A stretch of 64,000 bases of DNA from Terriglobia bacterium (GCA_965215235.1 OZ244053.1:4844760-4908759), one strand, 5' to 3'. Shown: positions 27,848 through 46,040, counted from the stretch's first letter. Made by a program: numbers and translations. The notes: generated by a model from the sequence alone, not told the origin.

Positions 27848-28928
27848 CACGGACCTGAGAAGCATGAGCGGGACCTCGCAGGGACTCACAAAGACCCACG
27901 GACCGGCCGCCCGGCGGGGCATGGGTTCCGCTAAGGGATCGGCCCGAAAGCCGGACAACTCCCGGTGTTTGCGCCTGCGCTTTCTGCTGCAGGCGTCAGC
28001 GGTCCTTTGGATCAGCCTTTACAGTCCATCACTGGGGGCGGAGTCCCGCCATTACCGCGAAGCCAAAGACTTTTATGAGAAGCAACAGAATCTGATGGCG
28101 ATGCTGGCAGCCCAAAGGGCGGTGGAGGAAGATCCGGAGAATGCCGACCACGTCTTTCTCTACGGTCTGGTCTTGACCGATCTGAAGCAGTTCAGCGAGG
28201 CGGGTGTTCAGCTTCGCAAAGCTCTGACCCTCCAGCCGGACAATGCGGAGTTCCATTACCGCTTGGCCGCTCTCCTGTTGCAGGAGAAGATGGAGTGGAA
28301 GGCAACGCTGGGACTGGACCGGCGTGACAATAGCACCGTGGTCGTTTTGGGGACCGAACAGGAGGCTTTGAATTCCTTGGAGATGGCCGTCAAACTCGAC
28401 CCCAAGCACTTCAAGGCGCGCCTCCATCTGGGGCGCACTTATTACGACCGGAATCTGCACGACCGAGCGCGCCGGCAGTTCGAGGCGGTAGAGGAAAAGG
28501 ATCCGAACTATCCCTGGCTCCACTACCATTTGTCGATGCTCCACTCGACCGTCGGGGACGTGCAGGGGGCCATCCGCGAGTTGGAAAAGGAGCTGGAGCT
28601 CCATCCCGAACATTCCCAGGCGCGGCTGGAATTGGGGGAGTCGCTGGTCAAGACCGGTCGACTCAAAAGCGCCTTGACTCATCTCTCTCAGGTGGAGGCG
28701 CAAGAGGTGAATCCCGTAGACTTGAACTACGCCCTCGCCAAAGCCCACCGGGGCTTGGGCGATCCCGACCAGGCAATGGCCTCGGCGAAGAAGTGCCTCG
28801 AGATGGATCCCGAGTTCACCGACGCTCACTACCTGCTGGGCCAGCTCTACCGTGAAACGGGGCAGCCTGAACGGTCTCGCCAAGCCATGGAGACGTTTCA
28901 AAGAGTCAAGAAGAACCCGGTCCGCTGA
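27840..28928 (+). CDS. TPR-repeat protein, type I paralog A (8-nt overlap with the CRTAC1 gene)
   Basis: It has multiple 34-residue TPR-like repeats. The conserved block YEKQQNLMAMLAAQRAVEEDPENADHVFLYGLVLTDLKQFSEAGVQLRKALTLQPDNAEFHYRLAALLLQE is shared with the TPRs at 55990..57117 and 62296..63279. Confidence 0.8.
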   Translation: MNSTDLRSMSGTSQGLTKTHGPAARRGMGSAKGSARKPDNSRCLRLRFLLQASAVLWISLYSPSLGAESRHYREAKDFYEKQQNLMAMLAAQRAVEEDPENADHVFLYGLVLTDLKQFSEAGVQLRKALTLQPDNAEFHYRLAALLLQEKMEWKATLGLDRRDNSTVVVLGTEQEALNSLEMAVKLDPKHFKARLHLGRTYYDRNLHDRARRQFEAVEEKDPNYPWLHYHLSMLHSTVGDVQGAIRELEKELELHPEHSQARLELGESLVKTGRLKSALTHLSQVEAQEVNPVDLNYALAKAHRGLGDPDQAMASAKKCLEMDPEFTDAHYLLGQLYRETGQPERSRQAMETFQRVKKNPVR

Positions 28929-29560: not shown

Positions 29561-31171
29561 ATGAAACGATTGACATTGAGATGGACTTGCTGGCTTCTTT
29601 GCGGCATTCTCCTATCACCTTTATTGGTGGTGGAAGCCCAGAAGAAAAAAGACAGGCAGCGGGAGAAGTCACTCCGCCGAGAAACTCAGGACCAGTTCTT
29701 GAAGAAGTGGCTCAAGCAGGATGTCTCCTACATCATCACGCCGCAAGAGAGGGACGCTTTTCAGAGGCTGACCAGCGACGATGAGCGCTATCAGTTCATC
29801 GAACAGTTCTGGTTGAGGAGAGATCCCAATCCGGACACCGTCGTCAATGAGTTCCGTGACGAACATTACCGGCGCATTGCCTACGCCAACGAACGGTTCA
29901 CTTCAGGCAAGATGGGCTGGAGGACGGACCGTGGCCGGATCTACATCATGTATGGTCCGCCGGATCAGATCGAGACGTTCCATGGGGGCGGCACTTACTA
30001 CCGGCCTCACTGGGAAGGGGGAGGAGTGAGCAGCACTCATCCCTTTATCAAATGGCGGTACCGCTACCTCGAGGGGATGGATTTGGGACAGGAAGTGATC
30101 ATCGAGTTCGTGGACCGCACCCTTACCGGCGAGTATCGGATGGCGCTCGATCCTTTTGAAAAGGACGCCCTAAAAAATACTCCGGTCGCTGACCTGACCG
30201 AGAATCAGAGAATGGGTCTGGGAGACGACAGCAGCCGTCTCACCCGTTTCCCATCCGGATTGACCTATCAGCAATTCCAGATCACCCAATTCAATACCCT
30301 GCGACAGTTGGCGGCTCTCAACCGAGCGCCCGAGATCCGATTCAAGGACCTCGAAACTGTGGTTGACACCAAGCTCACCTACAACCTCTTTCCCTTTGAC
30401 TATCGGACCGACTTTATCAAGATTACCGAGGACACGATCTTGACGCCGATTACTGTAGAAATGAAGAATCGTGACATGACCTTCAAGAAAGAGAATGGCG
30501 TCCACAAAGCAGCGGTCAACATCTTTGGCAGGATCACCACCATCACGGGGCGACGGGTTCAGGTTTTCGAAGAGGTTGTTCAGCAAGTAGCACCTGACTC
30601 CTTGTTCAAGGAAGCTCTGGAGAAGCGTTCCTTGTATCAGACTCGCATCCCCTTGCGCTCGGGGCTTTACAAGCTGGAGTTGGTGGTCAAGGAACTCAAC
30701 AGCGGCAACATGGGAACCGTCTATCAAAGCATCCGGGTGCCCAAGTTCCCCCAAGACCAACTCGCCACCAGTAGCATTATCCTGGCCGAACAACTTGAAC
30801 GACTTCCCAGAAAGCAGGTGGCTGCCGGACAATTCGTGATCGGGAGCTCGAAAGTCCTTCCCAGTGTCGATGAGGCTTTTGACCGAAGCCAGCCCATGGG
30901 AGTTTATTTTCAGATCTATAACCTGGCCACCGATGAGCAGACAAAGAAGCCGTCGGCCACCATCGAGTATGTGCTGAAGAAAGGCGGACAGGAAATCGGG
31001 CGAGCCTTGGAGTCTAAAGATAAGTTAGCCGGAGCGGCTCAGCAAATGACCTTGCAGAAGCTGGTCGCCCTGGAGGAGTTGGACCCCGGTCGATACAGCC
31101 TGGTGGTTAATGTCACGGACAATGTGGTGAATCAATCGGTAGCCCCCGAGGCTAAATTCGTGGTGCGCTAG
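29561..31171 (+). CDS. GWxTD domain-containing secreted protein
   Basis: Signal peptide is MKRLTLRWTCWLLCGILLSPLLVVEAQ. The diagnostic motif is GKMGWRTDRGRIYIMYGPPDQIE. Confidence 0.85.
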   Translation: MKRLTLRWTCWLLCGILLSPLLVVEAQKKKDRQREKSLRRETQDQFLKKWLKQDVSYIITPQERDAFQRLTSDDERYQFIEQFWLRRDPNPDTVVNEFRDEHYRRIAYANERFTSGKMGWRTDRGRIYIMYGPPDQIETFHGGGTYYRPHWEGGGVSSTHPFIKWRYRYLEGMDLGQEVIIEFVDRTLTGEYRMALDPFEKDALKNTPVADLTENQRMGLGDDSSRLTRFPSGLTYQQFQITQFNTLRQLAALNRAPEIRFKDLETVVDTKLTYNLFPFDYRTDFIKITEDTILTPITVEMKNRDMTFKKENGVHKAAVNIFGRITTITGRRVQVFEEVVQQVAPDSLFKEALEKRSLYQTRIPLRSGLYKLELVVKELNSGNMGTVYQSIRVPKFPQDQLATSSIILAEQLERLPRKQVAAGQFVIGSSKVLPSVDEAFDRSQPMGVYFQIYNLATDEQTKKPSATIEYVLKKGGQEIGRALESKDKLAGAAQQMTLQKLVALEELDPGRYSLVVNVTDNVVNQSVAPEAKFVVR

Positions 31172-31605
31172 CACAGCCTCGGGAAAGAAGCAACGCTGCC
31201 GGGCCGGGCTGGTGGCTCTACGATCCAATACTCGCCTGAATCCGATCGGAATGCACAGGTAGATTCCGACACAAGTTGTTTTCGTGAATCGGTTATTCTC
31301 GATCAGGGCGGTGTTTTGCCGTCGAAAACGTCGTCATTTAGCAAAGGTAGAGAATCGCATTCGTTGCTTTATGTTCTCTTTCTAATGTTGGTGCTTGTTT
31401 GGTTTTGTCCAAAACCTTGTTAACAAAAACACCACCAGGATTTTTTCGTTTTTCTCTCCTTATTAAGATTAAGCGATTCTTAGGGTCCAAAAGCTTACCT
31501 GGAGTTCGGGGGGGAAAAGATGTTAGCATGGGTGAAATCCTGAGGGCTACTTGTGATGAGATCTTCACCGTGAAGGCAATTTACTCTGACTGGTTGTCAC
31601 TATCT

Positions 31606-33435
31606 ATGGTTCCCATGCTTATGCTGGTCTTGACCGGTTCTCTTTTGGCGAGTTCCAGGCAGGAAGGTCGTTCTGTCCATAAGGTGATCAAGCCTGTTCC
31701 CTCTCTGGGCAGCATCGCCCCGAGCTCAGCCCCGCTAGGTAGCTCCCGCGTTACCATGACAGTAACGGGTGACGGATTCGTGGATGGAGCTTCGCTGGTG
31801 CGGTGGGATGGGAAAAGCCTGCCCACCACCTTCGAGAGCACAAGCCAACTCAAAGCCCATGTCTCTGCAGCACGGTTGACCTCCCCCGGTGATTTCGTTA
31901 TCACGGTCTTCAATCCCGAGCCTGGTGGTGGGACTTCCACCTCTGTGACATTCACGGTCTCGGATTCACAGAGCTCCCTGGACTTGTTCGTTCCGGTTGT
32001 GGTGTCTGTCGCAGGACTCAATGATTCCTTTTTCACCTCTGAGCTGACCTTGACCAATAAAAGCACTACTCCGGTTACCTTGGACCTCCAGTACACGGCT
32101 GCAGTAGGTTATGGAACAGGTCGCGTCTCCAACATTGAATTAACTCCGGGTCAACAAATCGAGCCAGACGCCATCGAGTATCTGAGAAGTCTGGGAATCC
32201 CTATTCCAGCCTCAGGTAGTCGAGTGGGAACGCTAATGGTTAGAGCCTTCGGAACCTCTTCACCTTCGGATGTCGCCGTGACGGTCAGAACAAGTTCACT
32301 GGTCCCCGAAGGACGAGCCGGGCTATCCTACACGGCTGTCCCCTTGGCCACCGGAGCTCTCACAGGCCCTTCCTACCTTTGTGGTTTGCAACAGACTGCG
32401 ACCGATCGGTCCAATGTGGCCGTCCAGCATGCGGGATTGTCGGGAAACATCACGTTACGTCTCACCGTCTTTTCGGGCAATGTTGCTGTGTCTTCTCCCC
32501 AATTAGTCGCGGAGGTGACGCTGCCTCCGGGAGGATTCAAGCAGTTCAACGGAATTCTGCAGTCGGAAGGCCTGATGCTGGACAATGGCTATGTGAAAAT
32601 CGAAAAGGTGTTCGGCGAGGCTCCTTACTATGCCTATGCAGTGATTAATGACCAGGCAAGTTCTGATAGTTCGTTTGTTGCTCCCGTTCGGGCGAACTGG
32701 ATGGCCGGAAGCTCTGGATTAACCCTGCCGGTTATCGTGGAGGCAGGAGAGTTTCGCAGTGAATTGATCGTTGCCAATTGGTCGTCTGATATTAAGACCA
32801 TCACCTTCCGATTCGTTGATAGTGACATCGCTAACGGGCAACTTTCCTTTTCGATGGACGTCGGGGCAGGATCGCAACGAATCCTCGGCGATTTCGTAGA
32901 ACACCTCCGAGAGCTCGGCTACTCCGCTGATCTACCTCGGGGCCGTACCTATGCCGGCCCTCTGATGGCCACTGTCAACGGCAACAGTGACGGATTGTTC
33001 CTGGGGTCTCGCACTTCTAAGCCAGGAGGAGGGGGGAAGTACGGAGTTTTTTGCCCAGCCGTGCCAATTGGGACCGCGTTCAGCACGGGGGCTTGGCTGT
33101 ATGGGCTTCAGCAAGATAGTGATGACCGAACCGACTTAGCCCTGCTGACAACTTCGAGTCGGGATAACAACGGCAATGTTTATGACATTGACTTGTACGA
33201 TGGAAACAGAGGCCTGAAGGTGAAGACACTTACCCAAGAAGTTCCCGCTAATCAATGGGTCCAAATTGGAATGATTCTGGGGCAGGCCGGGATCACCCAG
33301 GGCTATGCTCACGTCAAGCGAATGGTTGGAGACAATGATTTCATTACCTATGCGGTGATCAAAGACGGGGAAAAGCCAAATGAGCGTAGTGGCGATGGGG
33401 CCTTTATCCCTGGAGTTGCGGATAGCGTACCTTAA
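31606..33435 (+). CDS. Secreted protein: N-terminal IPT/TIG-like Ig domain plus two copies of a ~220-aa uncharacterised domain
   Basis: Signal peptide MVPMLMLVLTGSLLASS starts at ATG 31606 (alternatives 31528 and 31399). The IPT-like segment is SIAPSSAPLGSSRVTMTVTGDGFVDGASLVRWDG...VITVFNPEPGGGTSTSVTFTV. The internal duplication is LFVPVVVSVAGLNDSFFTSELTLTNKS...YAYAVINDQASSDSSFV versus LTLPVIVEAGEFRSELIVANWSS...ITYAVIKDGEKPNERSGDGAFI. Confidence 0.65.
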   Translation: MVPMLMLVLTGSLLASSRQEGRSVHKVIKPVPSLGSIAPSSAPLGSSRVTMTVTGDGFVDGASLVRWDGKSLPTTFESTSQLKAHVSAARLTSPGDFVITVFNPEPGGGTSTSVTFTVSDSQSSLDLFVPVVVSVAGLNDSFFTSELTLTNKSTTPVTLDLQYTAAVGYGTGRVSNIELTPGQQIEPDAIEYLRSLGIPIPASGSRVGTLMVRAFGTSSPSDVAVTVRTSSLVPEGRAGLSYTAVPLATGALTGPSYLCGLQQTATDRSNVAVQHAGLSGNITLRLTVFSGNVAVSSPQLVAEVTLPPGGFKQFNGILQSEGLMLDNGYVKIEKVFGEAPYYAYAVINDQASSDSSFVAPVRANWMAGSSGLTLPVIVEAGEFRSELIVANWSSDIKTITFRFVDSDIANGQLSFSMDVGAGSQRILGDFVEHLRELGYSADLPRGRTYAGPLMATVNGNSDGLFLGSRTSKPGGGGKYGVFCPAVPIGTAFSTGAWLYGLQQDSDDRTDLALLTTSSRDNNGNVYDIDLYDGNRGLKVKTLTQEVPANQWVQIGMILGQAGITQGYAHVKRMVGDNDFITYAVIKDGEKPNERSGDGAFIPGVADSVP

Positions 33436-33534
33436 GAACTATTGCTACTTCACCCCTCAGATTCAACTAACATCCTAACCAGTCAAACACGTTCTCCTGT
33501 CCATCCGGTTGCAGGGCAGAGCAAAAAAGCTGTC

Positions 33535-35771
33535 GTGAGGAAACGACACCGCCTGCTCCTCCCCACCCTAGGCCGATTAATCCTAGCGGTTTGCGGTCGA
33601 GTCGCTAGTCGATCCTATCACCTGTTGATTTTCTGGTTGCTCGGTAGTTTGCCAATACAGGCACAGAGGGGCCGGTTGGCAATCCAAACAGTCCCTCACT
33701 GAGACCCCAGCCTTACCAGCGCGCCGAAGCTTGCCTACCGTGTCACCAACGTCAGTACGACGAGCTGCGCAGTTCGGTCAAATCCGGCTACCGCAGTGTC
33801 AGTTCTGTATTCAATGCCTTGGAACTGGCTGGAAATTTCCTGAGCGGAGGCCGGCTACGGCCCGTCTATGGAGACAGCACGAAACTTACAGCCATCGACG
33901 TCACCGGAGTCGCGGGTCAAGGCAAGCCGCTCAACACCAACATGAACAGTGCGGCCTCCTTCACTCATATTAACCAAGTTCAGGCTGCCTTCTGTATTGG
34001 ATGTCATAACCCTCATATAGTGTTGATGGGGGAAGATCCTAACCAAAGGGAAATCCCCGAGCTGGAAGGGGTAGGCGGCAACTTTCGTCCGGATCAGATT
34101 CGCCCCTTGCGAGACTACCATTTTGTAGACAGCGCTAACCAACAAGTCCTGCCAGTTGAGATCGGTGGACCAGCACCGCCGGGTGCTGGACCGTCGCTGG
34201 GAGCCGATGGAATTACCTGTGATGTCTGTCATAACATCGCGGCTCCCGATCTGGACCGCAGCCCCAACCGTGATGGTCTTTCCAATGCCAGCTTTGAGTT
34301 ACTTCCCTCCATCAGCAAAGTAGGTCCCTTTTTGTTTCCGGCGCCCGTCAAGAACAACTTCCACGTTGCCAGTCGCGACCCCGTCCGGATTGCCTACTTG
34401 CGGAGCAGCGAATTCTGTGGTGGATGTCATGATGTCCGCGTACCTGGGGACGGTTCGGGTTCTCTGACCCACCAGGAAATCAGTCGGAACCCCGAAAGTC
34501 GGAGTGTCAGCCTTTTCCGGCTCGAAAATCTGAACACCGAGTGGATGACGGGTCCCTACAACAGTACCCAGAATCCATTTGGCAAGATCGTCCGTTGTCA
34601 GGACTGCCACATGTCTTTGTTTCCTTATAGCGGTGAAAGCACCTACCAAGTGGGAGAAATAGAGGTCACCAGTCCAACCCCAGGCCATTTTCCCTTGGAC
34701 TTCGCCGCCGTGCCGGGCATTTCGACAGACCTTGACTACCCACTGCAGAAGCGACCGGTGGTCACTCACTACATGACCGGAGTCGATGTGCCGCTCCTGA
34801 GGACAGAGGAATTGCGGACACGTCTCGGAGCGAACTACCCGGATGTCAATGAGCCCGGGTCGGATCAGTACGGAATTCCGCGGTCGCTGGCCAAGCGACG
34901 GGAGGATCTTTTAAGGGCTTCGGTTCGAATCAATCTGGACAAGTCAGATCGTAATGCACGGCTGGGCCAGCCTCTGATGGTCAGAGTGACGGCCGTGGCA
35001 CTGACCGGCCACCGTTTTCCGGCCGGATTCTCTCAAGAACGAACCGCCTACATCGAGCTCTCGATCCGGGACAACAAGGGATTTCTGGTCTACCAGTCCG
35101 GGTATGTCGTGGACAAGCCCCACCCGGAAGTCGGAGAGTTTGCCCCTGACGGGAATCTCGATGACGAAGATCCTGAGCACCTGCATGCCGTTGTCGACCC
35201 GGGAAGCCCGGTTACCCCCTATCGTGTGGGGCAATTCACCAACGGACATCGGAATCAGGTGTTCGAGCTGGGTCCGGACAACGGACCCGATGCGCGAATT
35301 TTTGTTGGAAAAGCGAGTGGCTTGGTGTTGTGGCGCAATGAGTTGACCCGGGTTTTCTTGCCGGGCGAAAGCCTAGGCCGCTTCAATGAGCAGGGTAATC
35401 CTCTCGTCTTGACCAGACCTCATTTTGAGGAAACCTTCAGCGCCGTGCTGGCAAACTCCGTCGACAACTACCGCTCGTTGCCACCATTGCAACCCAGGAC
35501 CTACAATTATGAAGTGATGCTTCCGACTAAAGAGGAACTGGAACTACTGGGGGTTGGAGAGCTGGAGTCGCCGCTCCGGGTTCACGCTCAAGTCAACTTC
35601 CTCCACTTCCCACCCTTGTTTCTGCGGTTTATGGCGAGAACCACCAGCGCCGAGGGGCCGGCAGGGCGCGACTTCCACCTGATTGACGAGAAACTCATTG
35701 ATGATCTCCTGGTTAACGTGCGCAGCATTGCCTCGGCAGATTTGACCATTGACTTGGTGGAACCACGATGA
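33535..35771 (+). CDS. Pentaheme c-type cytochrome (~740 aa) with a large C-terminal non-heme domain; apparent 1-nt frameshift near 33660-33670
   Basis: Five CXXCH motifs are present: CLPCH (upstream of the track ORF start, in the same frame from 33648), CIGCH, CDVCH, CGGCH and CQDCH. The signal-peptide-like N-terminus (VRKRHRLLLPTLGRLILAVCG..LLIFWLLGSLPIQAQ) lies in the frame of track ORF 33442..33702. A TGHRFPAGFSQER motif is also present. Confidence 0.7.
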
Positions 35772-36614
35772 GAAAGGAAAAACAGCTCTTGGCTTACTTG
35801 GCCGTGTTGCTCGTGGCCTTGTCCCTTTGGATTGGTTACAGAGAAGCATGGTCGCAAAATTCTCAACTTGGCTCCCGCGAAAACAATCCCAACTACTTGC
35901 GTCGCAACCCCTTTTACTTCGAAGGTAAAGTTGACTATGAGCTGTTAGGAATCGACCAGCCAGCGGATGCCTGGGAATTCATGCAGAGAGGAATTCACCG
36001 CCAAGATGATCTGCAGGATCGGGAGGGGGCCATTCAAGATTATCAAAGCGCGATCGAACGTAATAATCCGGAGAACGGCTCCTGTCAAATTGTCACAACT
36101 TTGCCTTCAACGACTCTGGAGTTCCAGCAGCTTACCCCAGCTCCCTGTCTCTTTACACCCCGGCTCAGGCTCGGGTATCTCCTGATCCACGAAGACCCGA
36201 TGCAAGCCATTGAGTTTTTTCGCCAAGTGATCGACATTGATCCCCAACGATTGGAGGTGAATGCACTCGTTGGCGAAGCGTACGAAATCTTGGGGGGGCC
36301 GGGCGTCGGACCCTGAGGAAAAGAGGGCGTTTTATTTGGAAGCAGTCAAAGCGCTGAAGGCAGAGTTGGTCCTTTCGCCGATCACCGAGTTGACCCGTCG
36401 CTTGACAGGTGATGAGGCTAACAATGCCCATACCCACTGGATGTTGGCAAGAATTCAGGAGAAGTTGGAAAACTATCCGGAGGCACTGGTTGCCCTCGAT
36501 CAATACCTTAAGGCTACCCAATGGCACAGCGACGTCTATCCGTGGCGGATTCCCCTGGCGCAACGACGTATTGAGGGATTGGAAGCGCGTCTCGGTCCAA
36601 TATCAGGCGACTAA
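35768..36614 (+). CDS. TPR-like repeat protein with N-terminal signal anchor; frameshift at the G7 run 36292-36298
   Basis: An ATGA overlap links it to the cytochrome stop. Track ORFs 35768..36316 and 36261..36614 join as ..VNALVGEAYEILGG|RASDPEEKRAFYLEAVKALKAEL... Length is 3n+1. Confidence 0.7.
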
Positions 36615-36823
36615 ATGGGAGCGACGGTTTCGAAGAGGACTCACCCATCGTTAAGAGAAGCTCCAGTTGTGATTATGGATTGGGCTGACTTGAGAAACTT
36701 CACCTCCAATAGCCAGCCTCGCGGGGCTTCTCGAGGATGAGGGCGTCGGCCAAAAAGCCGTCTTTCTAGGTGCTTGATTTCTCAATTGTCTTTGTTTCTT
36801 TGTGAGGGTCTGGCTCATCGAGC

Positions 36824-38404
36824 ATGGCATCTCGCTATGTCACATTGCCTGCCGCCATTGTTTGGGGGTGCCTTTCTGCTTACTCGCAGGCGTCGCAGCT
36901 TACCATTGAAGAGGCTTGGAATGAACTGCTGGGCGATTCTGCCCAACGGGCTTCCAAGGATCTCCTGGTTTCCACGAGCCCCCCGCCATCCAAGAGCGAC
37001 ACGCAGGAGTTCGTCGACCACTTTTTCTTTAATACCCGCTCCGAATATATCCGTCAAGAAATGACCTTCAGCGGTCTGCCCACCGTGACCGGTGTCGTCG
37101 ATGGTGAACCGGGCCAAGTGGCTAATCCTGGAGCCATTCCTTTCCCCGGAGCCTTTCAGCCTAATTCTGACCATTTTTACTCTTCAATGAATTGGGGAAC
37201 ACGGGGTTGGCTTTCACCACGAGTCAACACCAATTTCTCTTTGCGCTATCGACAAGATCTTTCTATGGTGGATATCGGTTCGCCCTCTCAAACTGTCGTC
37301 AATACATTTCTCTCGAATCGCCTCTTGGAGTTGACCACTGGTGTGGTGGAGTTGCAGGGATTAACCAAGCAGGGAACTCTTGCTAATTCGATCCTCCGAC
37401 TGGGGCGTCAACATATCTACGGGGCGGAGATGGCAACGGTGGACGGCTTCTCATTGACTTTGAATCAGGCCAAGTACTCGGTAAGCCTATTTGGAGGGCG
37501 GCGCTTTACCTACTATTCCAATCCTGAACAGCGGGCCATGGGGGGAGGTAGCTTTGGCTTTCGACTACCCGGAGGCACCAGTTTCGAGTACCAGGGATTG
37601 TTTTATCTCAAAGGAATCCACCGGTTCGTTATTCGCCAATCATTTGAATCCGAGTGGTTTGTCGGTGCTCACTTCAAGATGATTGCCTCCAAGGCGGTTG
37701 ACTTTGGCGCCCAAATTAGTTACCTGCCAGCCGATGGTCGTACAGAAGCAAGGTTCGCCTTTGCGCAGAAGCTATCCAATCACGATTTCATCTATGACTA
37801 TACCTCTCGCGTCAGAGATCGACATCCCTTCAACCGCGTGAGCCGACTAAATTTCGGTACTGTTTCACCCTACCGGAAGTTTTCGATCGAGGCCCATCGC
37901 CAGATTCTGCCGCTCATCAGGTTGGGGGGAGTTATGTGGGTCCGTCGCTTGGACAACGAACAGAACACCGGCCCTTTTGACACCTCATTCGGGGACTATC
38001 GGACCCACCTGCAGCTATTTCCGCTCCAACGGTTGACCTTGCTCCTTGAATTTCATCACCGCAACACGAACCGCCCTAGCCCATTCGGGATAGAGCAGTT
38101 TGATGACGTGCGAAACGCCGGTGAAACGCGTATACAGGACGTCAGCGCTGAAATCAGCCAATCCTTCGGGGAGGACCGACTGGGCATCACGCTCGGGATC
38201 TACCATCGGGACATTGACTTGCAGAATCGATTTTTTTTCATTGACAAAGCCCGTGCTCTCGGTGCGATTGGTGGCATATTTTGTCGGTTGAATCAGCGGA
38301 CCCGCCTATACTTCCGATATGGTTTGGATGATGACTTCTATATTTTCAGGCCCAGCCTGCAACGATTCCAAACCTATCGCATGGGATTGGACTGGCGACT
38401 GTAA
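36824..38404 (+). CDS. Putative outer-membrane beta-barrel protein (526 aa)
   Basis: The signal peptide MASRYVTLPAAIVWGCLSAYSQA is followed by SQ. The sequence has many short alternating hydrophobic/polar strands rich in Y/F/R/G (..NFSLRYRQDL.., ..YSVSLFGGRRFTYY.., ..LYFRYGLDDDFYIF.., C-terminus ..YRMGLDWRL). No recognisable enzymatic motif is present. Confidence 0.55.
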   Translation: MASRYVTLPAAIVWGCLSAYSQASQLTIEEAWNELLGDSAQRASKDLLVSTSPPPSKSDTQEFVDHFFFNTRSEYIRQEMTFSGLPTVTGVVDGEPGQVANPGAIPFPGAFQPNSDHFYSSMNWGTRGWLSPRVNTNFSLRYRQDLSMVDIGSPSQTVVNTFLSNRLLELTTGVVELQGLTKQGTLANSILRLGRQHIYGAEMATVDGFSLTLNQAKYSVSLFGGRRFTYYSNPEQRAMGGGSFGFRLPGGTSFEYQGLFYLKGIHRFVIRQSFESEWFVGAHFKMIASKAVDFGAQISYLPADGRTEARFAFAQKLSNHDFIYDYTSRVRDRHPFNRVSRLNFGTVSPYRKFSIEAHRQILPLIRLGGVMWVRRLDNEQNTGPFDTSFGDYRTHLQLFPLQRLTLLLEFHHRNTNRPSPFGIEQFDDVRNAGETRIQDVSAEISQSFGEDRLGITLGIYHRDIDLQNRFFFIDKARALGAIGGIFCRLNQRTRLYFRYGLDDDFYIFRPSLQRFQTYRMGLDWRL

Positions 38405-38486
38405 CGGCCAAGGGGGACAGAAAGACAGGTTGTAGCGGGGAACCCGCCATGAACGTCACTTCGAAAAAATAGAAATCGAGAGTTTT

Positions 38487-39808
38487 TTGGTAATCCGTGG
38501 ATTCATCAGTAAGGAAAAGCGTCAAGTCCGACTCATCTTGGGTTTCCTGCTGGCCATTGCTTCGCTCCTCTTGATCTTCTACCTTGCGGCAGGGCTAGGC
38601 CAGCCCCGCCCATCCGACTACCGCTTGCATGATTGGCATGTGGGTGAGCTGGTGATGGGCTGCGACGACTGTCACGTTCCAGAAGAACAGGGCTCAGTCG
38701 TCTTGCGCCGGCCGGGGCCACGCTCAATGTCTTTCATGCCACCAGGACGACTTTCAGATAAAACCGGACGCTGAGGTGTGCCAGGTGTGCCATGCTTCTT
38801 TTCCACCGACGGGGTCCGGGGATTTGCTTTCTTACCCTCGGTTCACCAAAAACCAAGCCATCCTTTTTCGCTTTTCACACGCGCAACACGTGGATAAAAA
38901 GGCGCGGCTGAATCCGAGCACGGGGTTCCGTGCCGACTGCACCTTTTGTCATAAGTTTGAAGGAGATGGAGTCTTCGCCGGATTCCCAGGTCACGTTGAA
39001 TGCGCTGCTTGTCATTCCAAGCCGAACATCTGGCCACGTCTGACCACGCAGTCCACGACGACCGATTGTCAGAACTGTCACAATGCGACTGAGCAAGACA
39101 ATCCGGGCTTCAGTAAAGACCGCCGACTAACGGGACCGCACCGCGCCTCAGGAGTGGCGGTGAATTTGAAATTCTCCCACCTGGCCCATTTGCGAAACAG
39201 GGGTGAAGAGCATTTTTCTTGTATCACTTGTCATTATGGGATCACTCACAGTCAGAGCTTGGCGGATCTCAATCATCCCCAGATGCTGGACTGTGTGGCT
39301 TGTCACGATGGAAAACAAGAGTTGGTGTCGCATTTCAAAATGGCCGACTGCCAAGCCTGCCACGTCGACCCCCAGAGCGGAGCGGTGCCTGTCAGCCACA
39401 CCCGGAACCTGAAGCCCCTCTCTCACACGGAAAGTTTCCGCAGAAATCACCAAGACCAAGCATCGGCAGGCAATGCCAAGTGCTTTGTTTGTCATACCAA
39501 TGTTTCTCCTCCCCTTCGTGGCGGCGGAAATTGCATTGCTTGCCATCAGGTGATGCGACCGCTATCGCACACCGCACGCTGGCGAGATACCATCCACGGA
39601 AAATATGCAGCGCTGGACCGTCAGGGCCTGCGCCGTTTGTCACACTGCTGACAGTTGTTCGAGATGCCATAACCAACTTCCAAGAAGCCACGTACCTCTC
39701 GCCTTGTTCAAAGCTGGGGCCCATGCCAACCTGGCCACGCTTGAGTTGCGGTCCTGTTTTACCTGCCATACCTTTGAAGACACCTGTGCGGTTTGCCATG
39801 TGCGTTAG
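38487..39808 (+). CDS. 15-heme c-type cytochrome (c7/c3-type repeats) with N-terminal membrane anchor; two apparent frameshifts (approx 38690-38715 and approx 39620-39630)
   Basis: Fifteen CXXCH motifs lie across three collinear frames: CDDCH | CLSCH CQVCH CTFCH CAACH CQNCH CITCH CVACH CQACH CFVCH CIACH | CAVCH CSRCH CFTCH CAVCH. It has F.H..H spacers (FSHAQHV, FSHLAHL) and the anchor LILGFLLAIASLLLIFYLAAG. Length is 3n+2. Confidence 0.75.
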
Positions 39809-39863
39809 CCTGGGTTACTCAAGGGGGTCTTTGAAATTGAGGAACCGGGGACCGGTTGGGCGT

Positions 39864-39972
39864 GGCGGAGTTCTGATCAAGCCTACGAAAAACCGTAGTA
39901 TTTACTCGACGATTTGTATCAGCCGTCGGGGCCGTTTCTTTTCAGTTAAGCTATTCAATTGATTCGGCTTGG
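39864..39972 (+). repeat. Conserved ~105-nt intergenic element, copy 1 (partner at 48096-48202)
   Basis: Hand alignment pairs AGCCTACGAAAAACCGTAGTATTTACTCGACGATTTGTATCAGCCGTCGG... with AGCCTACGAAAACCGTAGCATTCACCAGACGATTCGTACCGGCCATCGG... Identity is roughly three quarters, in the same orientation. It contains the CTACG-N5/6-CGTAG hairpin. Confidence 0.7.
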
Positions 39973-40329
39973 TTATGGTGAGTCTATTGATGGGTACAGG
40001 ACGGGCGGCAGTAATGAGAGTCATTGAATTCAGTTTTTCGTAGATTTGGATGCCGGGCTTCCAGTCCAGCCAAGTATAAATAGTGGTTAAACCACAGAAA
40101 AGATTAACCTTAAACGTAATGGTCGCCATTTGTTGGACTTTGGCAATACGATTGCACGACTTCACTAGGTTTGTGGACTAGTGGAGAATTAACCACAGTT
40201 AAGGGTTGCTCATGATTCAGGGGGGGAGAGGGAGACCGGGTCTAAGGGCCAAGCCAAAGGCAGGTCTTGTCTTACAACTCCCCGTGACTGCTTGACTTTT
40301 AACTGCTTAACCTGAGGGGGTAAACACCG

Positions 40330-43300
40330 ATGCAACATTTTCTGAAAGGGGCGAGCATTGCTTTTCTGTTCACCCTGATTCTTTCATTGTCATCTCTGCC
40401 CTTGGAGGCCCAGGAATATACGGGCATTCATGGGAATGTCGAAGACGAAACCGGTGCCAGGGTGACTCAAGTCGAGATCACGGCCACCGAAGAATCGACC
40501 GGGATCACACGCTCGACGATCAGCAACGAGGTGGGGATCTACGAACTGCGCGGCCTGCCGCCCGGGACCTACACCGTCTCGGCCGAGTTGGCAGGGTTCA
40601 AGGCCTATACCAATAACGGAGTGATCATCTACGCGGGACGCCCCCGGCGCGTCGACATCGTGCTGGAAGTGGGCGACGTCACCGACACCATCACGGTCTC
40701 GGAGGAAGGCGCTGTGATCGAAACCGATAAATCCAGCATCACCTACACCTTGCCGTACAAGGAGGTGGAGGCCTTCAGGATTGCCGCCAGTCTGATCTAC
40801 ACGGTGGGGAACAATCCCGGGGCCGAGAATCGCAGCCAGGTTCATGGAGCCTTCGCCAACAACACCACCTCTTTGCAGGACGGCGTGGCCACCAATGCCT
40901 ACGGCACCTTCCGGGCGCCTCAGGAACTGGTACAGGAGATCAATCAGGTCTCGCTGAACGCGCCGGCCGAATACAAGACCGCCACCACCATCAACGGGGT
41001 CGGCAGAGGCGGCACCAATCAGTTTCACGGTGAGATCTGGATGCAGTTGGACCATCCCCGGCTGCGGGCATTGACGCTCGGCCAGACGAGGCATCCTCCC
41101 GCCAAGCCGGGCGTCCGGTGGAACTACATGGGTTCGGGTCCCATCTACATTCCCAAGGTCTACGACGGACGGGACAGGACCTTCTTCCACTTCTACGTTC
41201 AGCCCAATTCCAGCGACCAGAAAGCTCCGATCAGTAACTACGTCTACCCCACGGCGGCCATTCGTGGCGGGGATCTGACCGAGGTCGTGCAGCAGCAGTT
41301 GAAGGGAAAGCCCGTCATCAATCCCTACACGGGTGAGCCTTTCGCCAACAACATCATTCCTTCCCACATGCTCAGCCCGGTGGCGCTGGCGGCTTTAAAC
41401 TACGCTCCTCTGCCCAATGCTTCGCACCCCGCGGGCACTCTGGTCGACAATACGCGTGGGTTTCAGTTCGGGACCAACGTGGAGAAGGACTGGCACCTGC
41501 GGCTCGATCACGCCATCACCGACTCGAACACCATCTCCTTCAACCACTACGGCTACAACCGGGTCCTGAATGAAGGCAACACGATTTCACTCGAGACCTG
41601 GATCGGTGACAACGCCACGCGCATGTGGAGCATCCAGGACTCGCACATGTTCTCCCCGACGGTGATCAACGAGTTCATGTTCGGGACCAACGATCAGGGA
41701 TACGTGACCCGGGGTGCGACCACCGATGGCAACGCCCTGCTCAGTGAGTTCGGCATCGACCTCGGGGGACGCACGTCTCCGGCCGGACCCGGATGTCCTC
41801 AAATCTACACGGGGCTCTGGGGATTCCAGCCGGGCGCCCTGTCAGGTTCCTTCTCAGCGACGGAACTCACCTTTCCCTTCCTGGGACGCTGCGGTGCGGG
41901 CGGTTCCAGCAGCAACCCCAAGGTTTGGGTCATGAAGGACAGCGTCTCAATGAACCGGGGCGCCCATCTCATCAAATTCGGGATCGAGGCCAACTGGGAG
42001 CGGCCGTTCGGGTCGGGCAACAGTTCAACGTCCTGGGGTGAGTATCACTTCACCGGCCATTACACCGGGAGCGATATCGGCGACTTTCTGCTCGGAATCC
42101 CACGCGAGACGGCGATCGCGACCTCCCGCCCCGACGTTCGTGCCCGGGGGTTCGACTTCGGTGTCTTCGCCCAGGACGACTGGAAGGTGACCTCGCGCCT
42201 GACCATGACCTACGGCGCTCGCATCCAGCACTATGGCGCTCCTACGGAGGCCAACGGCCTCTTCTACAACTTCGACTTCGACAACCTTCAAGTCGTGGTT
42301 CCCGACAACTCCATCGACCGGGTCGTTCCGGTATGGCCGAGAGCGCAGATTCCGGTGGTCAAGGCCAGCGATGCCGGCTATCCACAGAGCCTGGTCAACT
42401 TCAGTACGGCGCACATCTCTCCCCGGTTCGGACTGGCCTATCGCATCAACGATTGGACCGTGATCCGAGCCGGATACGGGGTTTATCACGTGCCCTTCGC
42501 CATTGCCGGCGCGGATGCGAGTGGCCTCGGGCGGGCTGGATGGCTGGGAGGCCGCGAGGGAGGACCGTTCGCCGGGTCGGAATCGTTCGGACCCAACGAG
42601 ATCGTCGACGGCAAGCCGGTGTTGACGTTCAAGAACCCCTTTCTGCCCGCCGGCAGCGGCGAAATACCCAGGCAGGGTGTGCGGGGGATACCTCTCAACA
42701 GTCGTAGTGACGCTTGGGCTTACGACCAACAGTGGAACCTGACCCTGGAAAACGATCTGGGCGACGGCTGGGCGACACGGGTTTCCTACGTGGCTTCCAA
42801 GGGGACCAGTTGGCCTTACCGGAGCAACTTACAGACTCCCGCGCCCAGCACGATTCCGTTCGATGATCGGACCGACAAGTTCCCCTGGGGCGAAAACTTT
42901 TCTTTCGTCGACCGGCACGACCTGGGAGGCACCGGCAGCTTCCACAGCCTGGAGTTGGAAGCGACCCGACAGTTCAGCCGGGGAATTTATCTGCGAAGCT
43001 GGTTCGAGTGGAAAAAGAACCTGGCCGATGTCATCCCGGGATTGTTCTCATCCAGCATCGGCTTTGAAGCCGAGGATCCACTCGACCGTAAGCGCGACAA
43101 GGGCATCCAGAACGGTATCCGCCGGCAGCGCTGGCATGTGGCCGGGGTCTGGAGCCTCCCGGTGGGTCAAGGGGAGCGCTTCGGTAGCGACATGGGTGGC
43201 GTCCTCAATGGCCTTGTGGGCGACTGGACGGCGGCCTTCAAATTCACCGGTGGCTCCGGAACGGCCTTCACGCCGAGCTACTCCGGTTCGGATCCCTCCA

Positions 43301-43677
43301 ACACCGGACGCTCCGGCGGACGGCCGGATCAGTTGTGCAATCCCAACGGCTTCGGCCCCACACCCGGCCGAGGGTGGAACCCCGCCTGCTTCGCCATTCC
43401 CGAGGCGGGTATTGGCCGCTACGGCAACGCCAGCCGCGGGATGCTGATTGCTCCGCGTGACTGGGGCACCGAACTCAATCTCTTCAAGCGGTTCAACTTG
43501 ACCAAGTACGAGAACGGCCCTTACTTCAATTTCGAGACCTACATCAACAATCTCTTCAATCACCGCAACGCTTCCGGTCCTTCCTCGACCAACATCTCCG
43601 CTGCCAACTTCGGTGTCTTCCAACCCAGCGGATGGGAAGCGCGCCGCATCGTGTTCCGTCTCAGGCTCGGCTTCTAG
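40330..43677 (+). CDS. TonB-dependent outer-membrane receptor with N-terminal carboxypeptidase-regulatory-like domain (Acidobacteria type)
   Basis: The ORF is 1115 aa with signal peptide ..LSLSSLPLEAQE. The CarboxypepD_reg-like segment is GIHGNVEDETGARVTQVEITATEESTGITRSTISNEVGIYELRGLPPGTYTVSAELAGFKAY. A long beta-barrel region ends in ..RIVFRLRLGF with a terminal Phe. Confidence 0.85.
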   Translation: MQHFLKGASIAFLFTLILSLSSLPLEAQEYTGIHGNVEDETGARVTQVEITATEESTGITRSTISNEVGIYELRGLPPGTYTVSAELAGFKAYTNNGVIIYAGRPRRVDIVLEVGDVTDTITVSEEGAVIETDKSSITYTLPYKEVEAFRIAASLIYTVGNNPGAENRSQVHGAFANNTTSLQDGVATNAYGTFRAPQELVQEINQVSLNAPAEYKTATTINGVGRGGTNQFHGEIWMQLDHPRLRALTLGQTRHPPAKPGVRWNYMGSGPIYIPKVYDGRDRTFFHFYVQPNSSDQKAPISNYVYPTAAIRGGDLTEVVQQQLKGKPVINPYTGEPFANNIIPSHMLSPVALAALNYAPLPNASHPAGTLVDNTRGFQFGTNVEKDWHLRLDHAITDSNTISFNHYGYNRVLNEGNTISLETWIGDNATRMWSIQDSHMFSPTVINEFMFGTNDQGYVTRGATTDGNALLSEFGIDLGGRTSPAGPGCPQIYTGLWGFQPGALSGSFSATELTFPFLGRCGAGGSSSNPKVWVMKDSVSMNRGAHLIKFGIEANWERPFGSGNSSTSWGEYHFTGHYTGSDIGDFLLGIPRETAIATSRPDVRARGFDFGVFAQDDWKVTSRLTMTYGARIQHYGAPTEANGLFYNFDFDNLQVVVPDNSIDRVVPVWPRAQIPVVKASDAGYPQSLVNFSTAHISPRFGLAYRINDWTVIRAGYGVYHVPFAIAGADASGLGRAGWLGGREGGPFAGSESFGPNEIVDGKPVLTFKNPFLPAGSGEIPRQGVRGIPLNSRSDAWAYDQQWNLTLENDLGDGWATRVSYVASKGTSWPYRSNLQTPAPSTIPFDDRTDKFPWGENFSFVDRHDLGGTGSFHSLELEATRQFSRGIYLRSWFEWKKNLADVIPGLFSSSIGFEAEDPLDRKRDKGIQNGIRRQRWHVAGVWSLPVGQGERFGSDMGGVLNGLVGDWTAAFKFTGGSGTAFTPSYSGSDPSNTGRSGGRPDQLCNPNGFGPTPGRGWNPACFAIPEAGIGRYGNASRGMLIAPRDWGTELNLFKRFNLTKYENGPYFNFETYINNLFNHRNASGPSSTNISAANFGVFQPSGWEARRIVFRLRLGF

Positions 43678-43704
43678 GAAGACCCATAGCCTGATCCATG
43701 ACAG

Positions 43705-43745
43705 AAAGCCCCGTGCAACCGCATCATGCACGGGGCTTTTTGTTT
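43705..43745 (+). terminator. Rho-independent terminator downstream of the TonB-dependent receptor gene
   Basis: AAAGCCCCGTGCA (43705-43717), loop ACCGCATCA, TGCACGGGGCTTT (43727-43739) form a 13-bp stem whose 3' arm runs into TTTTTGTTT. Confidence 0.85.
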
Positions 43746-44229
43746 CCGGGCCTCTTCCAGACGAAGCTCCCAGTCGTTCATCAGGTCAAAGATTTGTTCT
43801 ACCCGGACATCGAAGAAACCCCAGCTGCAGCAGGTATTTCCCTCTTGGGAGGGGTGGCGCGCGCACAGGGGGCGCCGAGGTGGATCATACAGGATGAAAT
43901 TTCTGGATGGTTATGGCCTGTAACAGTGGCGCAAGCCGTGGCAGCGGATAGCCATTGGCTGAAGCCCGGTATGAGCCCATGGAATTCGACAATCCCCATT
44001 TTCAGTGAGTCGTGAATGTAGCGCCGGCATTGGTAGAGAACCAGGGAGCGTCCGTGAAGTATAAGGAAAAGCATAGCTCAGTTTCCGCGACGCAGGAACG
44101 ACGCGTGCGAGGCCCTTCCCTTCCGACACCTCAGGACCTCCCCTGTTTTTCCCGCAGTAACCACTTTTGACCATTTTTGTTATTCTTGCTAGGATGAACG
44201 ACAGATCCATCTCTGTGGAGGTCTGATTC

Positions 44230-44502
44230 ATGAATGTGTCTCTCACCTCAGAACTTGAAGCGTTTGTGGCAGCCAAGGTGCAAAGTGGGCGCTACCATTC
44301 GGCTAGTGAGGTGATCCGTGAAGCATTGCGGCTACTCGAAGAGCGTGAGCAACTGCGAGCCATCCGCATTCAGGATCTCCGTAAGAAAATTGGCGAAGGG
44401 CTAGGGCAACTTGATCGTGGTGAAGGTGTTTCCGGCGGCCAGGTATTCTCCGAGCTGGAGGCTGAATTGGGTACCCTGGAACAAGCACACTGCACAGAAT
44501 GA
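44230..44502 (+). CDS. parD: ParD-family (CC2985/COG3609-type) type II antitoxin
   Basis: MNVSLTSELEAFVAAKVQSGRYHSASEVIREALRLLEEREQLRAIRIQDLRKKI.. is the canonical ribbon-helix-helix ParD signature. Confidence 0.85.
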   Translation: MNVSLTSELEAFVAAKVQSGRYHSASEVIREALRLLEEREQLRAIRIQDLRKKIGEGLGQLDRGEGVSGGQVFSELEAELGTLEQAHCTE

Positions 44503-44790
44503 GTCGATACGTTCTTTCCCCAGCCGCAAGGCAAGACCTGAAAGAGATTCAAGCCTACATTGCACGGGACAGCATCCGCGCCGCCCGACGCGTAATCACT
44601 GAACTTCGCATGGCTTGTGAACGTCTTGGACAGAGCCCCCCTGATGGGACATATTCGTGAGGATTTAACCGCTCAACAGGTGCTTTTCTGGCCAGTGGGA
44701 GTGTATACCATCATCTATCGCCCTAGGACCACACCTCTGGAAATCGTCCGGGTGTTGCACGGATCTCGGGACATCCCAAGTCTGGTGTGA
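44499..44790 (+). CDS. parE: ParE/RelE-family type II toxin; frameshift at the C6 run 44636-44641
   Basis: An ATGA overlap links it to parD. The sequence MSRYVLSPAARQDLKEIQAYIARDSIRAARRVITELRMACERLGQSP continues, after a 1-nt shift, as LMGHIREDLTAQQVLFWPVGVYTIIYRPRTTPLEIVRVLHGSRDIPSLV*. It is not in the ORF track because each piece is under 60 aa. Confidence 0.75.
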
Positions 44791-44806
44791 AGCATAGGGG
44801 CAACGC

Positions 44807-46040
44807 ATGCGTCGTCCTTACCTTGTTACCCAAGAACGTCCCCTGTTTTTTCCTCCACTGAAGCGGCGGATGCCGCGTCAGCCTATAGCCGCGGGCGTGA
44901 GCCCATGGATAACTTTCAACCAGCGTCACGTCTTGGCGGTCTTTCTCATCCTTGCGCTCTGTGTCCCGCTGTTCCCACAGGGGCGGGCGTATCAGAATGC
45001 TCTGGAGAGCTACCAATCGGAACGTTACCTGGAGGCGTTGGCGGCCATTCAGAAGGCTCTGGGCCAAGATAAACACAAAGCCTCCCACTACCTTCTTCAG
45101 GCCAAGATCCTCTCGGCGCTGCGCCAGTTCAGTGATGCCGAGGAGAGCTTGCGCCGAGCTATGGAACTGGAGCCCGGGTGGGTGGAGCCTTACTACGAGT
45201 TGGGGGTTCTCTTGTTCAGGCACAGCAAGTTCCAGAAGGCAGCGGCGATGCTCGCCCAAGGAGTCGAACGGGAACCCGATTCGATCAAGACTCGTTTTCT
45301 TCTGGGGATCAGCTATATGCAGATCAACCTGGACGGAGCAGCCATGGAGCAGTTCAAGGCCGTGGAGCGAGCCGATCCGAACTACCCCGCGGTTCATCAC
45401 AGCATCGGACGGGTTTACTTTCGTCAGGGCAGGGACAATGAGGCGATTGAACGCTTCAAATCCGAGTTGGTGAACAACCCCAATCATGCTGCGGCCAGGT
45501 TTCTGCTGGGCAAGGTTCTGCTGAGAACGGGACAGGAAGAAGAAGCGGTCGTCCATTTGCTGGCTCTTCAGGGAAAAGAAGTCGGTCAAGCCCAGTTGCA
45601 ATACTTTCTGGGTTCTGCTTATAGCCGCTTGGGGAAACCAGCGGAAGCCGTGGAAGCGCTTCTCAAAAGCATTGCCCTCAATCCAGCCTTCTATGAATCG
45701 CGTTACCTTCTGGCCCGGCTCTACCTCGAAACAGGGCCAGCCCGATCTGGCCCAAAAACAAATGGCCATGTTCGAGAAATTGCGGCAGAGAGAAGGGCGG
45801 GGAAAGGCGGTCGACGCCAAAAAGTTCGACAGGGAAAATCAGGAATTCGTTCAAGCCGACAGCGATGCCAATGGCAAGTTGACGCCACAAGAGTTCGAGG
45901 GCTTCGTCAATACTCGAGTGAAGAATTTTGAAAAGCATGACGAGTTCTTTCAGGGACTGGACCGCAATGTCAACGGCTTTCTGGATAGTCAGGAATTCAG
46001 CCGGCGATTCGAAGTGCTGGCAAGACTTCAAGGCAGATAG
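44807..46040 (+). CDS. TPR-repeat protein, type II paralog B, with a C-terminal EF-hand pair; frameshift near 45734-45743
   Basis: The TPR body is alignable with 50430..51353. After ..YLLARLYLETG the frame of track ORF 45672..46040 continues as ..PDLAQKQMAMFEKLRQREGRGKAVDAKKF..DSDANGKLTPQEFEGF..LDRNVNGFLDSQEFSRRF, giving two DxDxNGxhxxxEF loops. Length is 3n+1. Confidence 0.7.

Follow-up and report, generated by a model that had tools for sequence, protein, structure and literature searches.

The closest systems described so far are the porin-cytochrome conduits, in which multiheme cytochromes and an outer-membrane barrel together carry electrons across the outer membrane. In the MtrCAB complex of Shewanella (PDB 6R2Q), the decaheme cytochrome MtrA is threaded in the 26-strand barrel MtrB and capped by MtrC, a decaheme lipoprotein. 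The Pcc cluster of Geobacter (OmbB-OmaB-OmcB) combines a porin-like barrel with an 8-heme and a 12-heme partner, and OmcB is a lipoprotein (PMC4245776). Also in Geobacter, ExtHIJKL is composed of the 21-strand ExtI, the pentaheme ExtKL and the rhodanese lipoprotein ExtH (PMC6148476, PMC5877670). Acidobacteria were not mentioned in the 2014 survey of pcc clusters, and a study of 2020 placed MtrB-type and ExtB/E-type clusters in Holophaga only. A recent preprint on peat Acidobacteriota describes two predicted systems, EET1, with a porin, an NHL propeller and a 13-heme OmcE-like cytochrome, and EET2, with an MtrC-like and a DmsE-like protein, a TonB-type porin and a cytochrome c (bioRxiv 10.64898/2026.05.27.727921). 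Here we analyze a cluster of four genes, A, B, C and D, in a stretch of 64,000 nucleotides of the genome of a Terriglobia bacterium (GCA_965215235.1 OZ244053.1:4844760-4908759), which we refer to as the window. Literature searches, which covered an incomplete body of papers, turned up no account of the A-B-C-D cluster. The four genes probably encode a conduit of the porin-cytochrome type across the outer membrane, with the cytochrome D threaded through the barrel C.

The cluster spans positions 33535-39808 of the window, and its four genes are co-oriented on the + strand, as a preliminary description of this stretch had reported:

33535-35771, + strand: gene A, a predicted exported pentaheme cytochrome of about 745 aa with five CxxCH motifs; one frameshift
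35768-36614, + strand: gene B, a predicted exported TPR protein of about 281 aa, above the cut-offs of Pfam TPR models; one frameshift
36824-38404, + strand: gene C, a predicted outer-membrane beta-barrel of 526 aa with 22 predicted strands; frame intact
38487-39808, + strand: gene D, a predicted exported 15-heme cytochrome of the c3/c7 type, about 440 aa; two frameshifts
39883-39898, + strand: a terminator-like hairpin about 75 bp past the stop codon of D, from a pattern scan

The ATG of B overlaps the TGA of A as ATGA at 35768-35771. The TPR-like protein and its overlap with the pentaheme gene, both noticed earlier, are borne out by this junction and by the Pfam models TPR_1, TPR_19 and TPR_6, which B matches above their cut-offs. 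The hairpin may mark the end of an operon, at a density of such sites that is not above that of shuffled sequence; promoter and terminator patterns were counted throughout the region, and neither exceeded the counts in shuffled sequence. The gap of 212 bp between B and C was considered as a conserved element and rejected, because its conservation is low and two close relatives lack it.

Gene C carries a Sec signal peptide, as does its family, and had been suspected of encoding a beta-barrel. We built an AlphaFold2 model on 58 homologues (mean predicted local distance difference test, pLDDT, of 76), which folds into 22 strands from residue 67 to residue 525, the C-terminus, leaves residues 1-58 disordered and lacks a folded plug domain. 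When the model was compared to the PDB with Foldseek, only outer-membrane barrels were retrieved (best E 1.4e-10, template modelling (TM) score of about 0.5), led by the usher pores FimD and PapC, chitoporin, MOMP, AlgE and Occ porins, and MtrB was not among the top 50 matches. The barrel expected from the 526-aa protein is thus supported by the model. By sequence, the barrel is an orphan. The window copy has no match in Pfam at E<=0.01 and none in NCBIfam, and the 58 members of the family have no match in Pfam even at E<=10, nor any in NCBIfam. This includes MtrB_PioB (PF11854), so that the comparison with MtrB and PioB raised in the preliminary description came out negative for the window copy and for the family alike. 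Likewise, 10 distant barrel relatives gave no usable match in Pfam or NCBIfam, and no chain in the PDB was matched by the sequence of C or by its family profile. When 1.8 billion representative proteins were searched exhaustively with a profile, only 243 barrel relatives were returned at E<=1e-3. C is predicted to be an outer-membrane barrel of an unclassified family.

Two segments of C are conserved outside the strands or at their end. The first is an N-terminal periplasmic segment (..AWxxLL..) with an invariant tryptophan, W32. The second is the C-terminal signal, ..G(L/M)xW(R/K)(Y/L), which closes with an aromatic residue in 79 of the 88 full-length members (76 with Y and 3 with F). The absence of a terminal aromatic residue from the window copy had earlier been a reason for caution. 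This copy ends in ..DWRL (38393-38404) and shares its terminal L with its eight closest relatives. The altered C-terminal signal for outer-membrane insertion is a trait of this lineage and not a defect.

By the usual relation of barrel geometry, 22 strands would give a C-alpha diameter of about 40 Å. In TonB-dependent receptors, a barrel this large is filled by a plug of about 150 residues. Since a lumen as large as that of C is plugged by so many residues in these receptors, the empty 22-strand lumen would need an occupant. The same consideration bears on another function for the cluster, in which the barrel would admit a soluble or colloidal substrate, such as selenite or tellurite, polysulfide or sulfur, or chelated metals, and A and D would form a periplasmic reductase chain, with no chain of hemes across the membrane. 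We regard this as unlikely. A plug-less barrel of 22 strands is far wider than the diffusion porins, with their 14-18 strands, and would be leaky if empty.

The candidate occupant is D, which has 15 CxxCH motifs. All 15 are invariant in 30 aligned homologues, together with exactly 15 further invariant histidines. Because of this pattern, all hemes of D look bis-histidine ligated, as in a pure electron wire and not an enzyme. With 15 invariant distal histidines, D would offer no open coordination site for catalysis, which argues against a reductase fed through the barrel. In Pfam, D matches Cytochrome_C7 (1.6e-15), the MtrC/MtrF domain II/IV model (PF22113; 1e-13) and Cytochrom_c3_2. Its sole match in NCBIfam is QrcA, below threshold (46.9 bits against a cut-off of 180), and the MtrA/DmsE models of NCBIfam/TIGRFAM are not matched. 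Profile matches in the PDB are weak and all of the c3/c7 type (ACIII ActA, a fragment of GSU1996 and HmcA), and MtrA (6R2Q chain A) is absent from them. The 12-heme c7-type cytochrome GSU1996 is about 12 nm long, so a chain of 15 hemes could span the membrane and reach into the periplasm.

D most likely starts at a TTG at position 38487. The N-termini of its family are cleavable Sec signal peptides that end in AxA before a Q, and they have no conserved lipobox cysteine. The reading of D as a lipoprotein or a membrane-anchored protein was therefore rejected at the level of the family. The assignment to a 15-heme c7-type cytochrome made in the preliminary description stood, and the N-terminal anchor that came with it did not hold for the family. 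In the window copy the hydrophobic N-terminal stretch is unusually long, and either an uncleaved anchor or a signal peptide would fit it.

Gene A encodes the second cytochrome of the cluster. Its five CxxCH motifs are invariant in 52 aligned homologues, and all 40 full-length homologues that we inspected have five as well. A five-heme domain at the N-terminus is followed by a C-terminal beta-rich region of the immunoglobulin (Ig)/CARDB-like type, which carries an invariant GHRFPAGFSQER motif. The AlphaFold2 model (pLDDT 75.6, predicted TM score 0.81) reproduces this division, with a helical heme domain and then a beta-rich half that finds weak CARDB/Ig-type matches in Foldseek. The only significant structural match of A is the pentaheme cytochrome c552 of Thermochromatium tepidum (5ZE8; E 6.8e-10, probability 1.00), with a TM score of 0.60 on the target and 13% identity; OmcA appears only at E 0.2. 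Searches of the PDB sequences with the single protein and with the family profile returned no match, c552 included. The two proteins share five hemes and a similar fold of the heme domain, and differ in that A is almost twice as long, owing to its beta-rich C-terminal half of about 300 residues. The signal peptides of the A family end in AxA, followed by Q(T/R)PVGNP, and have no conserved lipobox cysteine. They are ordinary Sec signal peptides, and a lipoprotein was rejected at the family level here too. What had been described as a pentaheme protein of about 740 aa with a signal or lipoprotein-like N-terminus thus keeps its hemes, its approximate length and its signal peptide, and loses its lipoprotein character. 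Overall, the cleavable Sec signal peptides of both families indicate that the two cytochromes leave the cytoplasm, as had been expected.

The match to c552 provides a link to known conduits. A study of cable bacteria places c552, Geobacter ExtKL and Gsu2801 in one pentaheme (PHC) family, whose members often have an Ig-like domain, and mentions a proposed relation of this family to archaeal extracellular cytochrome nanowires (PMC11976967). With five invariant CxxCH motifs, a modelled fold like that of c552 and a beta-rich C-terminal half, A would belong to this fold family. This lends support to a conduit, because the sole structural relative of A is thereby grouped with ExtKL, which is part of a porin-cytochrome cluster. 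Some of the same evidence is also consistent with a barrel that admits substrate to periplasmic reductases. T. tepidum c552 is a soluble low-potential protein for which a function in sulfur metabolism has been suggested (as cited in PMC11976967). ExtI, the porin of the pentaheme ExtKL cluster, has been linked to the reduction of selenite and tellurite (PMC5877670), ExtKL is predicted to be periplasmic (PMC6148476), and neither A nor D seems to have a lipid anchor.

The TPR protein B has a Sec signal peptide of the same kind (AxA before Q; no conserved lipobox cysteine in the family), and just past it a conserved motif, NPNYxxRNPFYFEGK(V/I)D. It may act as an assembly or scaffold factor. In Slam, an N-terminal TPR domain is fused to a 14-strand DUF560 barrel, and the substrates are lipoproteins. 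By analogy with Slam or with an usher, B and C could form a translocon that moves A, D or both to the surface, where the exported cytochromes, perhaps polymerised, would function on their own without the barrel. We consider this a rather improbable function. It would agree with FimD and PapC as the best structural matches of C, with a TPR gene beside the barrel in 80 of 84 loci, and with cytochromes that, having no lipid anchor, need another route of export; moreover, the fold family of A is reportedly related to extracellular cytochrome nanowires of archaea (PMC11976967). However, B has no match to the Pfam model TPR_Slam, which other TPR proteins of the window match weakly, and C matches neither the DUF560 barrel nor any usher model in Pfam and lacks the plug and the periplasmic domains of ushers. 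The differences from Slam extend to the architecture, as here the TPR is a separate protein, the barrel has 22 predicted strands and the neighbouring cytochromes do not appear to be lipoproteins. Finally, one distant locus, L086, retains the barrel and a homologue of D and has no TPR gene.

We then asked how widely the cluster is conserved. When one genome per species was scanned, 86 barrel relatives were identified. The best 80 of them, corresponding to 79 distinct loci, were fetched, and reference proteins were used to look for the partner genes across the six reading frames of each locus. All four genes occur together in 66 of the 69 species-level loci with enough flanking sequence (96%). 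The order is A-B-C-D in 61 loci and B-C-D-A in three, and A and B are inverted in two; D is missing from two loci, and A and B from one. The synteny holds down to 35% identity of the barrel. Immediately beside the barrel, B is found in the 80 loci given above and D in 81 of 84. The closest barrel relatives, with 71-77% identity, are from 'Candidatus Versatilivorator', a name for which we found no paper in the literature, and from sponge-derived Acidobacteria bins, and the remaining ones, with 35-55% identity, are from Bryobacterales, Terriglobia and Acidiferrales. Except for one short contig labelled Chloroflexi and one A homologue labelled Binatia, all fetched relatives are Acidobacteriota. 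The A-B-C-D arrangement is far beyond chance, and the co-occurrence on which the preliminary description had made its proposal depend is a property of nearly all these Acidobacteriota loci.

The most distant relatives reveal which genes of the cluster stay together. L086 (3348-11233) encodes a nine-heme LVIVD-repeat protein of 1546 aa, a barrel of 614 aa and a 15-heme homologue of D (phmmer 8e-102), and represents a second architecture on the same barrel-cytochrome core. In L090, a TPR gene is followed by a nine-heme D-like cytochrome and a barrel of 596 aa, and in L089 the barrel lies between a D-like cytochrome and another cytochrome. Two distant barrel relatives lie on contigs too short to reveal their neighbours. 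To judge from these gene contents, the conserved core consists of the barrel and a D-like cytochrome, and the other partner has been swapped in distant relatives. That barrel and D-like protein are strictly paired while the third partner varies agrees better with two structural partners than with a porin that serves periplasmic reductases. This pattern also suggests how the cytochromes would be placed. In Geobacter conduits the periplasmic partner is conserved and the outer partner is replaceable (PMC6148476), and since the barrel and the D-like protein are likewise kept while the other partner varies, D would be inside and A outside. In the vicinity of the L086 genes, we also observed a ferredoxin-type protein with a cyclic-nucleotide-binding domain and an FHA/pyridine-nucleotide-oxidoreductase protein.

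The neighbourhood of the barrel contains further candidates for electron transfer. Of the 80 loci, 40 encode a tetraheme quinol dehydrogenase of the NapC/NirT type within 8 kb of the barrel, 50 a monoheme cytochrome c, 32 NDH-2, a type II NADH dehydrogenase with a fused cyclic-nucleotide-binding domain, and 49 a small membrane protein that also contains such a domain; the families were assigned with Pfam. The window and the relatives closest to it do not have the NapC/NirT module next to the cluster. In L004 (10945-15191), L017, L025-L045 and others, the genes for NapC/NirT, the cyclic-nucleotide-binding membrane protein, cytochrome c and NDH-2 lie downstream of D. FHA/guanylate-cyclase-type proteins and proteins of the metallo-beta-lactamase fold are often found near this module in soil relatives. 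The domain content hints that the pathway of the soil relatives is switched by a cyclic nucleotide signal.

These data lead us to infer a physical complex, with the following threaded and outward cytochromes, role of B, direction of flow and acceptors. D would be exported to the periplasm and inserted lengthwise into the plug-less barrel C, as MtrA is within MtrB, giving a continuous chain of hemes across the outer membrane. A, with its heme and Ig-like domains, would dock to the C-D core, most likely on the outer face, where it would contact the acceptor. B, in the periplasm, would bind or chaperone its partners, perhaps through the conserved N-terminal extension of C that holds W32. In most soil relatives, electrons would pass from the quinol pool, fed by NDH-2, through the NapC/NirT quinol dehydrogenase and the monoheme cytochrome c to the conduit, and would flow outwards, the candidate acceptors being minerals of Fe(III) or Mn(IV), organic matter in humic or particulate form, and a partner cell. 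Outward flow would be the most economical reading of the neighbourhood, and the reverse direction is also possible. A conduit of this kind had been put forward in the preliminary description, and the fold of the barrel, the export of the cytochromes and the co-occurrence of the genes all came out in favour of it as a prediction. By gene content, with a plug-less barrel beside exported multiheme cytochromes in conserved synteny, the cluster would fall in the functional class of these conduits.

When compared to MtrCAB, the cluster shows the same association of a large plug-less barrel with an exported and apparently all-bis-histidine multiheme wire and a second cytochrome. In addition, D exceeds the cut-off of the Pfam pentaheme model for MtrC/MtrF domain II/IV, and the NapC/NirT quinol dehydrogenase is adjacent in soil relatives, as CymA serves Mtr. 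The differences are that C has 22 predicted strands, and MtrB 26, and that C does not match MtrB_PioB; that D has 15 hemes of the c3/c7 type and no match to MtrA/DmsE, which have 10 CxxCH motifs; that no lipoprotein cytochrome is present and a TPR protein is added; and that the second cytochrome combines five hemes with Ig-like domains. MtrC and OmcA are decaheme proteins of four domains with a lipobox, whereas the A and D families have no lipobox and A has five hemes.

The Geobacter systems were compared by their published descriptions. As in ExtHIJKL, the barrel has about 21-22 strands (22 predicted here, 21 published) and there is no lipoprotein outer-membrane cytochrome; the fold of A is that of c552, which PMC11976967 groups with ExtKL, an indirect likeness that goes through a shared structural neighbour. 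Unlike ExtHIJKL, this cluster has no rhodanese gene, and its 15-heme partner and TPR protein are absent from Ext. By description, ExtHIJKL would be the nearest analogue in composition. In Pcc, too, one cluster encodes a porin-like barrel together with two cytochromes, one of them periplasmic and multiheme; Pcc is set apart by its published composition, with 8 and 12 hemes and the lipoprotein OmcB in place of 15 and 5 hemes, no lipoproteins and an extra TPR protein, and the barrel studied here matches no Pfam model. Overall, the cluster does not qualify by sequence as a member of the Mtr families and differs from the composition reported for Pcc and ExtHIJKL, the latter two compared by description.

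EET1 and EET2 are found in the same phylum (Terriglobales, Bryobacterales) and are likewise predicted syntenic clusters of a porin and multiheme cytochromes with low identity to model systems. Identity with either of them was rejected on the basis of the preprint description and of the domain content found here: the cluster has no NHL propeller and no MtrC/OmcA or DmsE member, includes a TPR protein, and has cytochromes with 5 and 15 hemes, whereas the counts in the preprint range from 8 to 13.

Several observations weigh against a conduit. No component appears homologous in sequence to a proven conduit protein: the barrel does not match MtrB_PioB in Pfam and MtrB is outside its top 50 structural matches, and D does not match MtrA/DmsE. 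The structural evidence for the barrel is generic, as the Foldseek matches to the model indicate a fold class rather than a particular family. MtrC, OmcB and ExtC/D are lipoproteins; judging from the N-termini, the two cytochromes of this cluster are not, which leaves unexplained how the outer component would be exported and held. Among the best 80 of the 86 barrel relatives, all carriers are metagenome-assembled genomes. The lineage of the window resembles sponge-associated metagenome-assembled genomes, where the NapC/NirT module is not adjacent. Finally, if the four frameshifts of the window copy were real, this copy would be dead.

These four frameshifts fall within 6.3 kb and in three of the four genes (one in A, one in B and two in D), as might be seen in a pseudogenised remnant of the cluster. 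We located the junctions between frames by tblastn with proteins of close relatives:

33668-33671, + strand: frameshift in A, in a run of four G; tblastn junction 33669/33672
36292-36298, + strand: frameshift in B, in a run of seven G; tblastn junction 36292/36294 (against L016)
38714-38717, + strand: first frameshift in D, in a run of G; tblastn junction at about 38716
39624-39626, + strand: second frameshift in D, in a run of G; tblastn junction 39623-39627

All four coincide with G(3-7)CC runs, of which the cluster has only 10, covering 1.6% of its positions. Two more frameshifts, at about 45.73 kb (~45733) and 46.89 kb (~46893), affect unrelated neighbour genes in a CAGGGCC context, so that all six frameshifts detected between 31 and 55 kb of the window have a G(3-7)CC context. 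In the cluster genes we found no in-frame stops and no other lesions. Outside the junction, A is 88% identical to its homologue in L016 (tblastn), and the ratios of nonsynonymous to synonymous substitution rates (dN/dS) against L016 are 0.065 for A and 0.163 for C, as would be expected of genes under purifying selection. Because of the shared sequence context, the same defect in neighbour genes, the low dN/dS and the absence of stops, the pattern points to a systematic error of long-read base-calling or assembly, in a source contig of 5.2 Mb, rather than to decay, and we regard a decayed copy as very improbable. The error is possibly linked, in a motif-specific way, to GGCC methylation, and other genes of the same genome are probably affected by it.

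A narrower version of the conduit is that it evolved independently and is essentially confined to Acidobacteriota, with the orphan barrel threaded by a 15-heme, all-bis-histidine wire of the c7 type and an outward partner of the c552/ExtKL fold; in its strongest form, A would polymerise or stack on the surface. We hold this version to be possible at long odds.

The region around the cluster is rich in related genes. Directly upstream of A, and also in close relatives, lies a gene for a 678-aa 'choice-of-anchor Z' protein with PGGG repeats (31399-33435, + strand), which is preceded by a gene for a GWxTD-domain protein (29561-31171, + strand). A module composed of a multiheme cytochrome, a TPR protein and an FG-GAP/ASPIC (CRTAC1-like) protein recurs several times on both sides of the cluster:

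26051-28928, + strand: genes of the cytochrome/TPR/FG-GAP module
44807-47921, + strand: genes of the cytochrome/TPR/FG-GAP module
48494-53317, + strand: genes of the cytochrome/TPR/FG-GAP module
55990-58244, - strand: genes of the cytochrome/TPR/FG-GAP module
60410-61399, + strand: genes of the cytochrome/TPR/FG-GAP module
63342-63998, - strand: genes of the cytochrome/TPR/FG-GAP module

The recurrent module includes an 8-heme protein (48494-50356), a 7-heme protein (57084-58244) beside a FecR-domain gene (58232-59716), and a cytochrome with at least six hemes that runs off the end of the window. In close relatives, one such module is directly 3' of D. The order in L005, L008, L012 and L016 is TonB-like barrel, TPR, FG-GAP, choice-of-anchor Z (CoaZ)-repeat protein, A-B-C-D and 8-heme cytochrome. 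The window differs in that the genes from the TonB-like barrel to FG-GAP form a block (40330-47921) downstream of D, which indicates a local rearrangement within the region that was compared (29561-47921).

Farther upstream, at about 18 kb of the window, a GC content of about 0.70 gives way to one of about 0.59. The high-GC block (1-18000) contains an open reading frame of 2279 aa (3782-10621, - strand) with leucine-rich repeats, an O-antigen-ligase-like stretch and GT4 domains, as well as further glycosyltransferases, and ends at a gene of the phage-integrase family (17054-17923, - strand). This block resembles an acquired island, and the repeat protein in it resembles those of eukaryotes. 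The only tRNA gene of the window, tRNA-Val (CAC) (21217-21291, - strand), is about 3 kb past the edge of this island.

Acidobacteriota are among the most abundant bacteria of soil, and little is understood of how they respire in anoxic microsites, peat and sediments. The cluster and its neighbourhood outline a candidate complete route from NADH to the surface, through NDH-2, quinol, NapC/NirT, cytochrome c, a 15-heme wire in a barrel and a pentaheme protein, and the cluster is conserved in genomes of the Terriglobales, Acidiferrales and Bryobacterales types and in a marine or sponge-type lineage. Conduits in new phyla are no longer surprising. What sets this one apart is its distinct composition, its orphan barrel, which escapes screens for conduits with Pfam-based hidden Markov models, its near-confinement to an abundant phylum, and the complete path from the quinone pool that many genomes also carry beside it. 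If a filament of A proved true, an abundant soil phylum and a sponge-associated lineage would be able to reach minerals or particulate organic matter through filaments of cytochromes. If the conduit itself is confirmed, it would be one more independent way of bridging the outer membrane with hemes, would provide a compact module of four genes for heterologous tests, and would yield profile models with which the capacity for extracellular electron transfer could be found in soil metagenomes.

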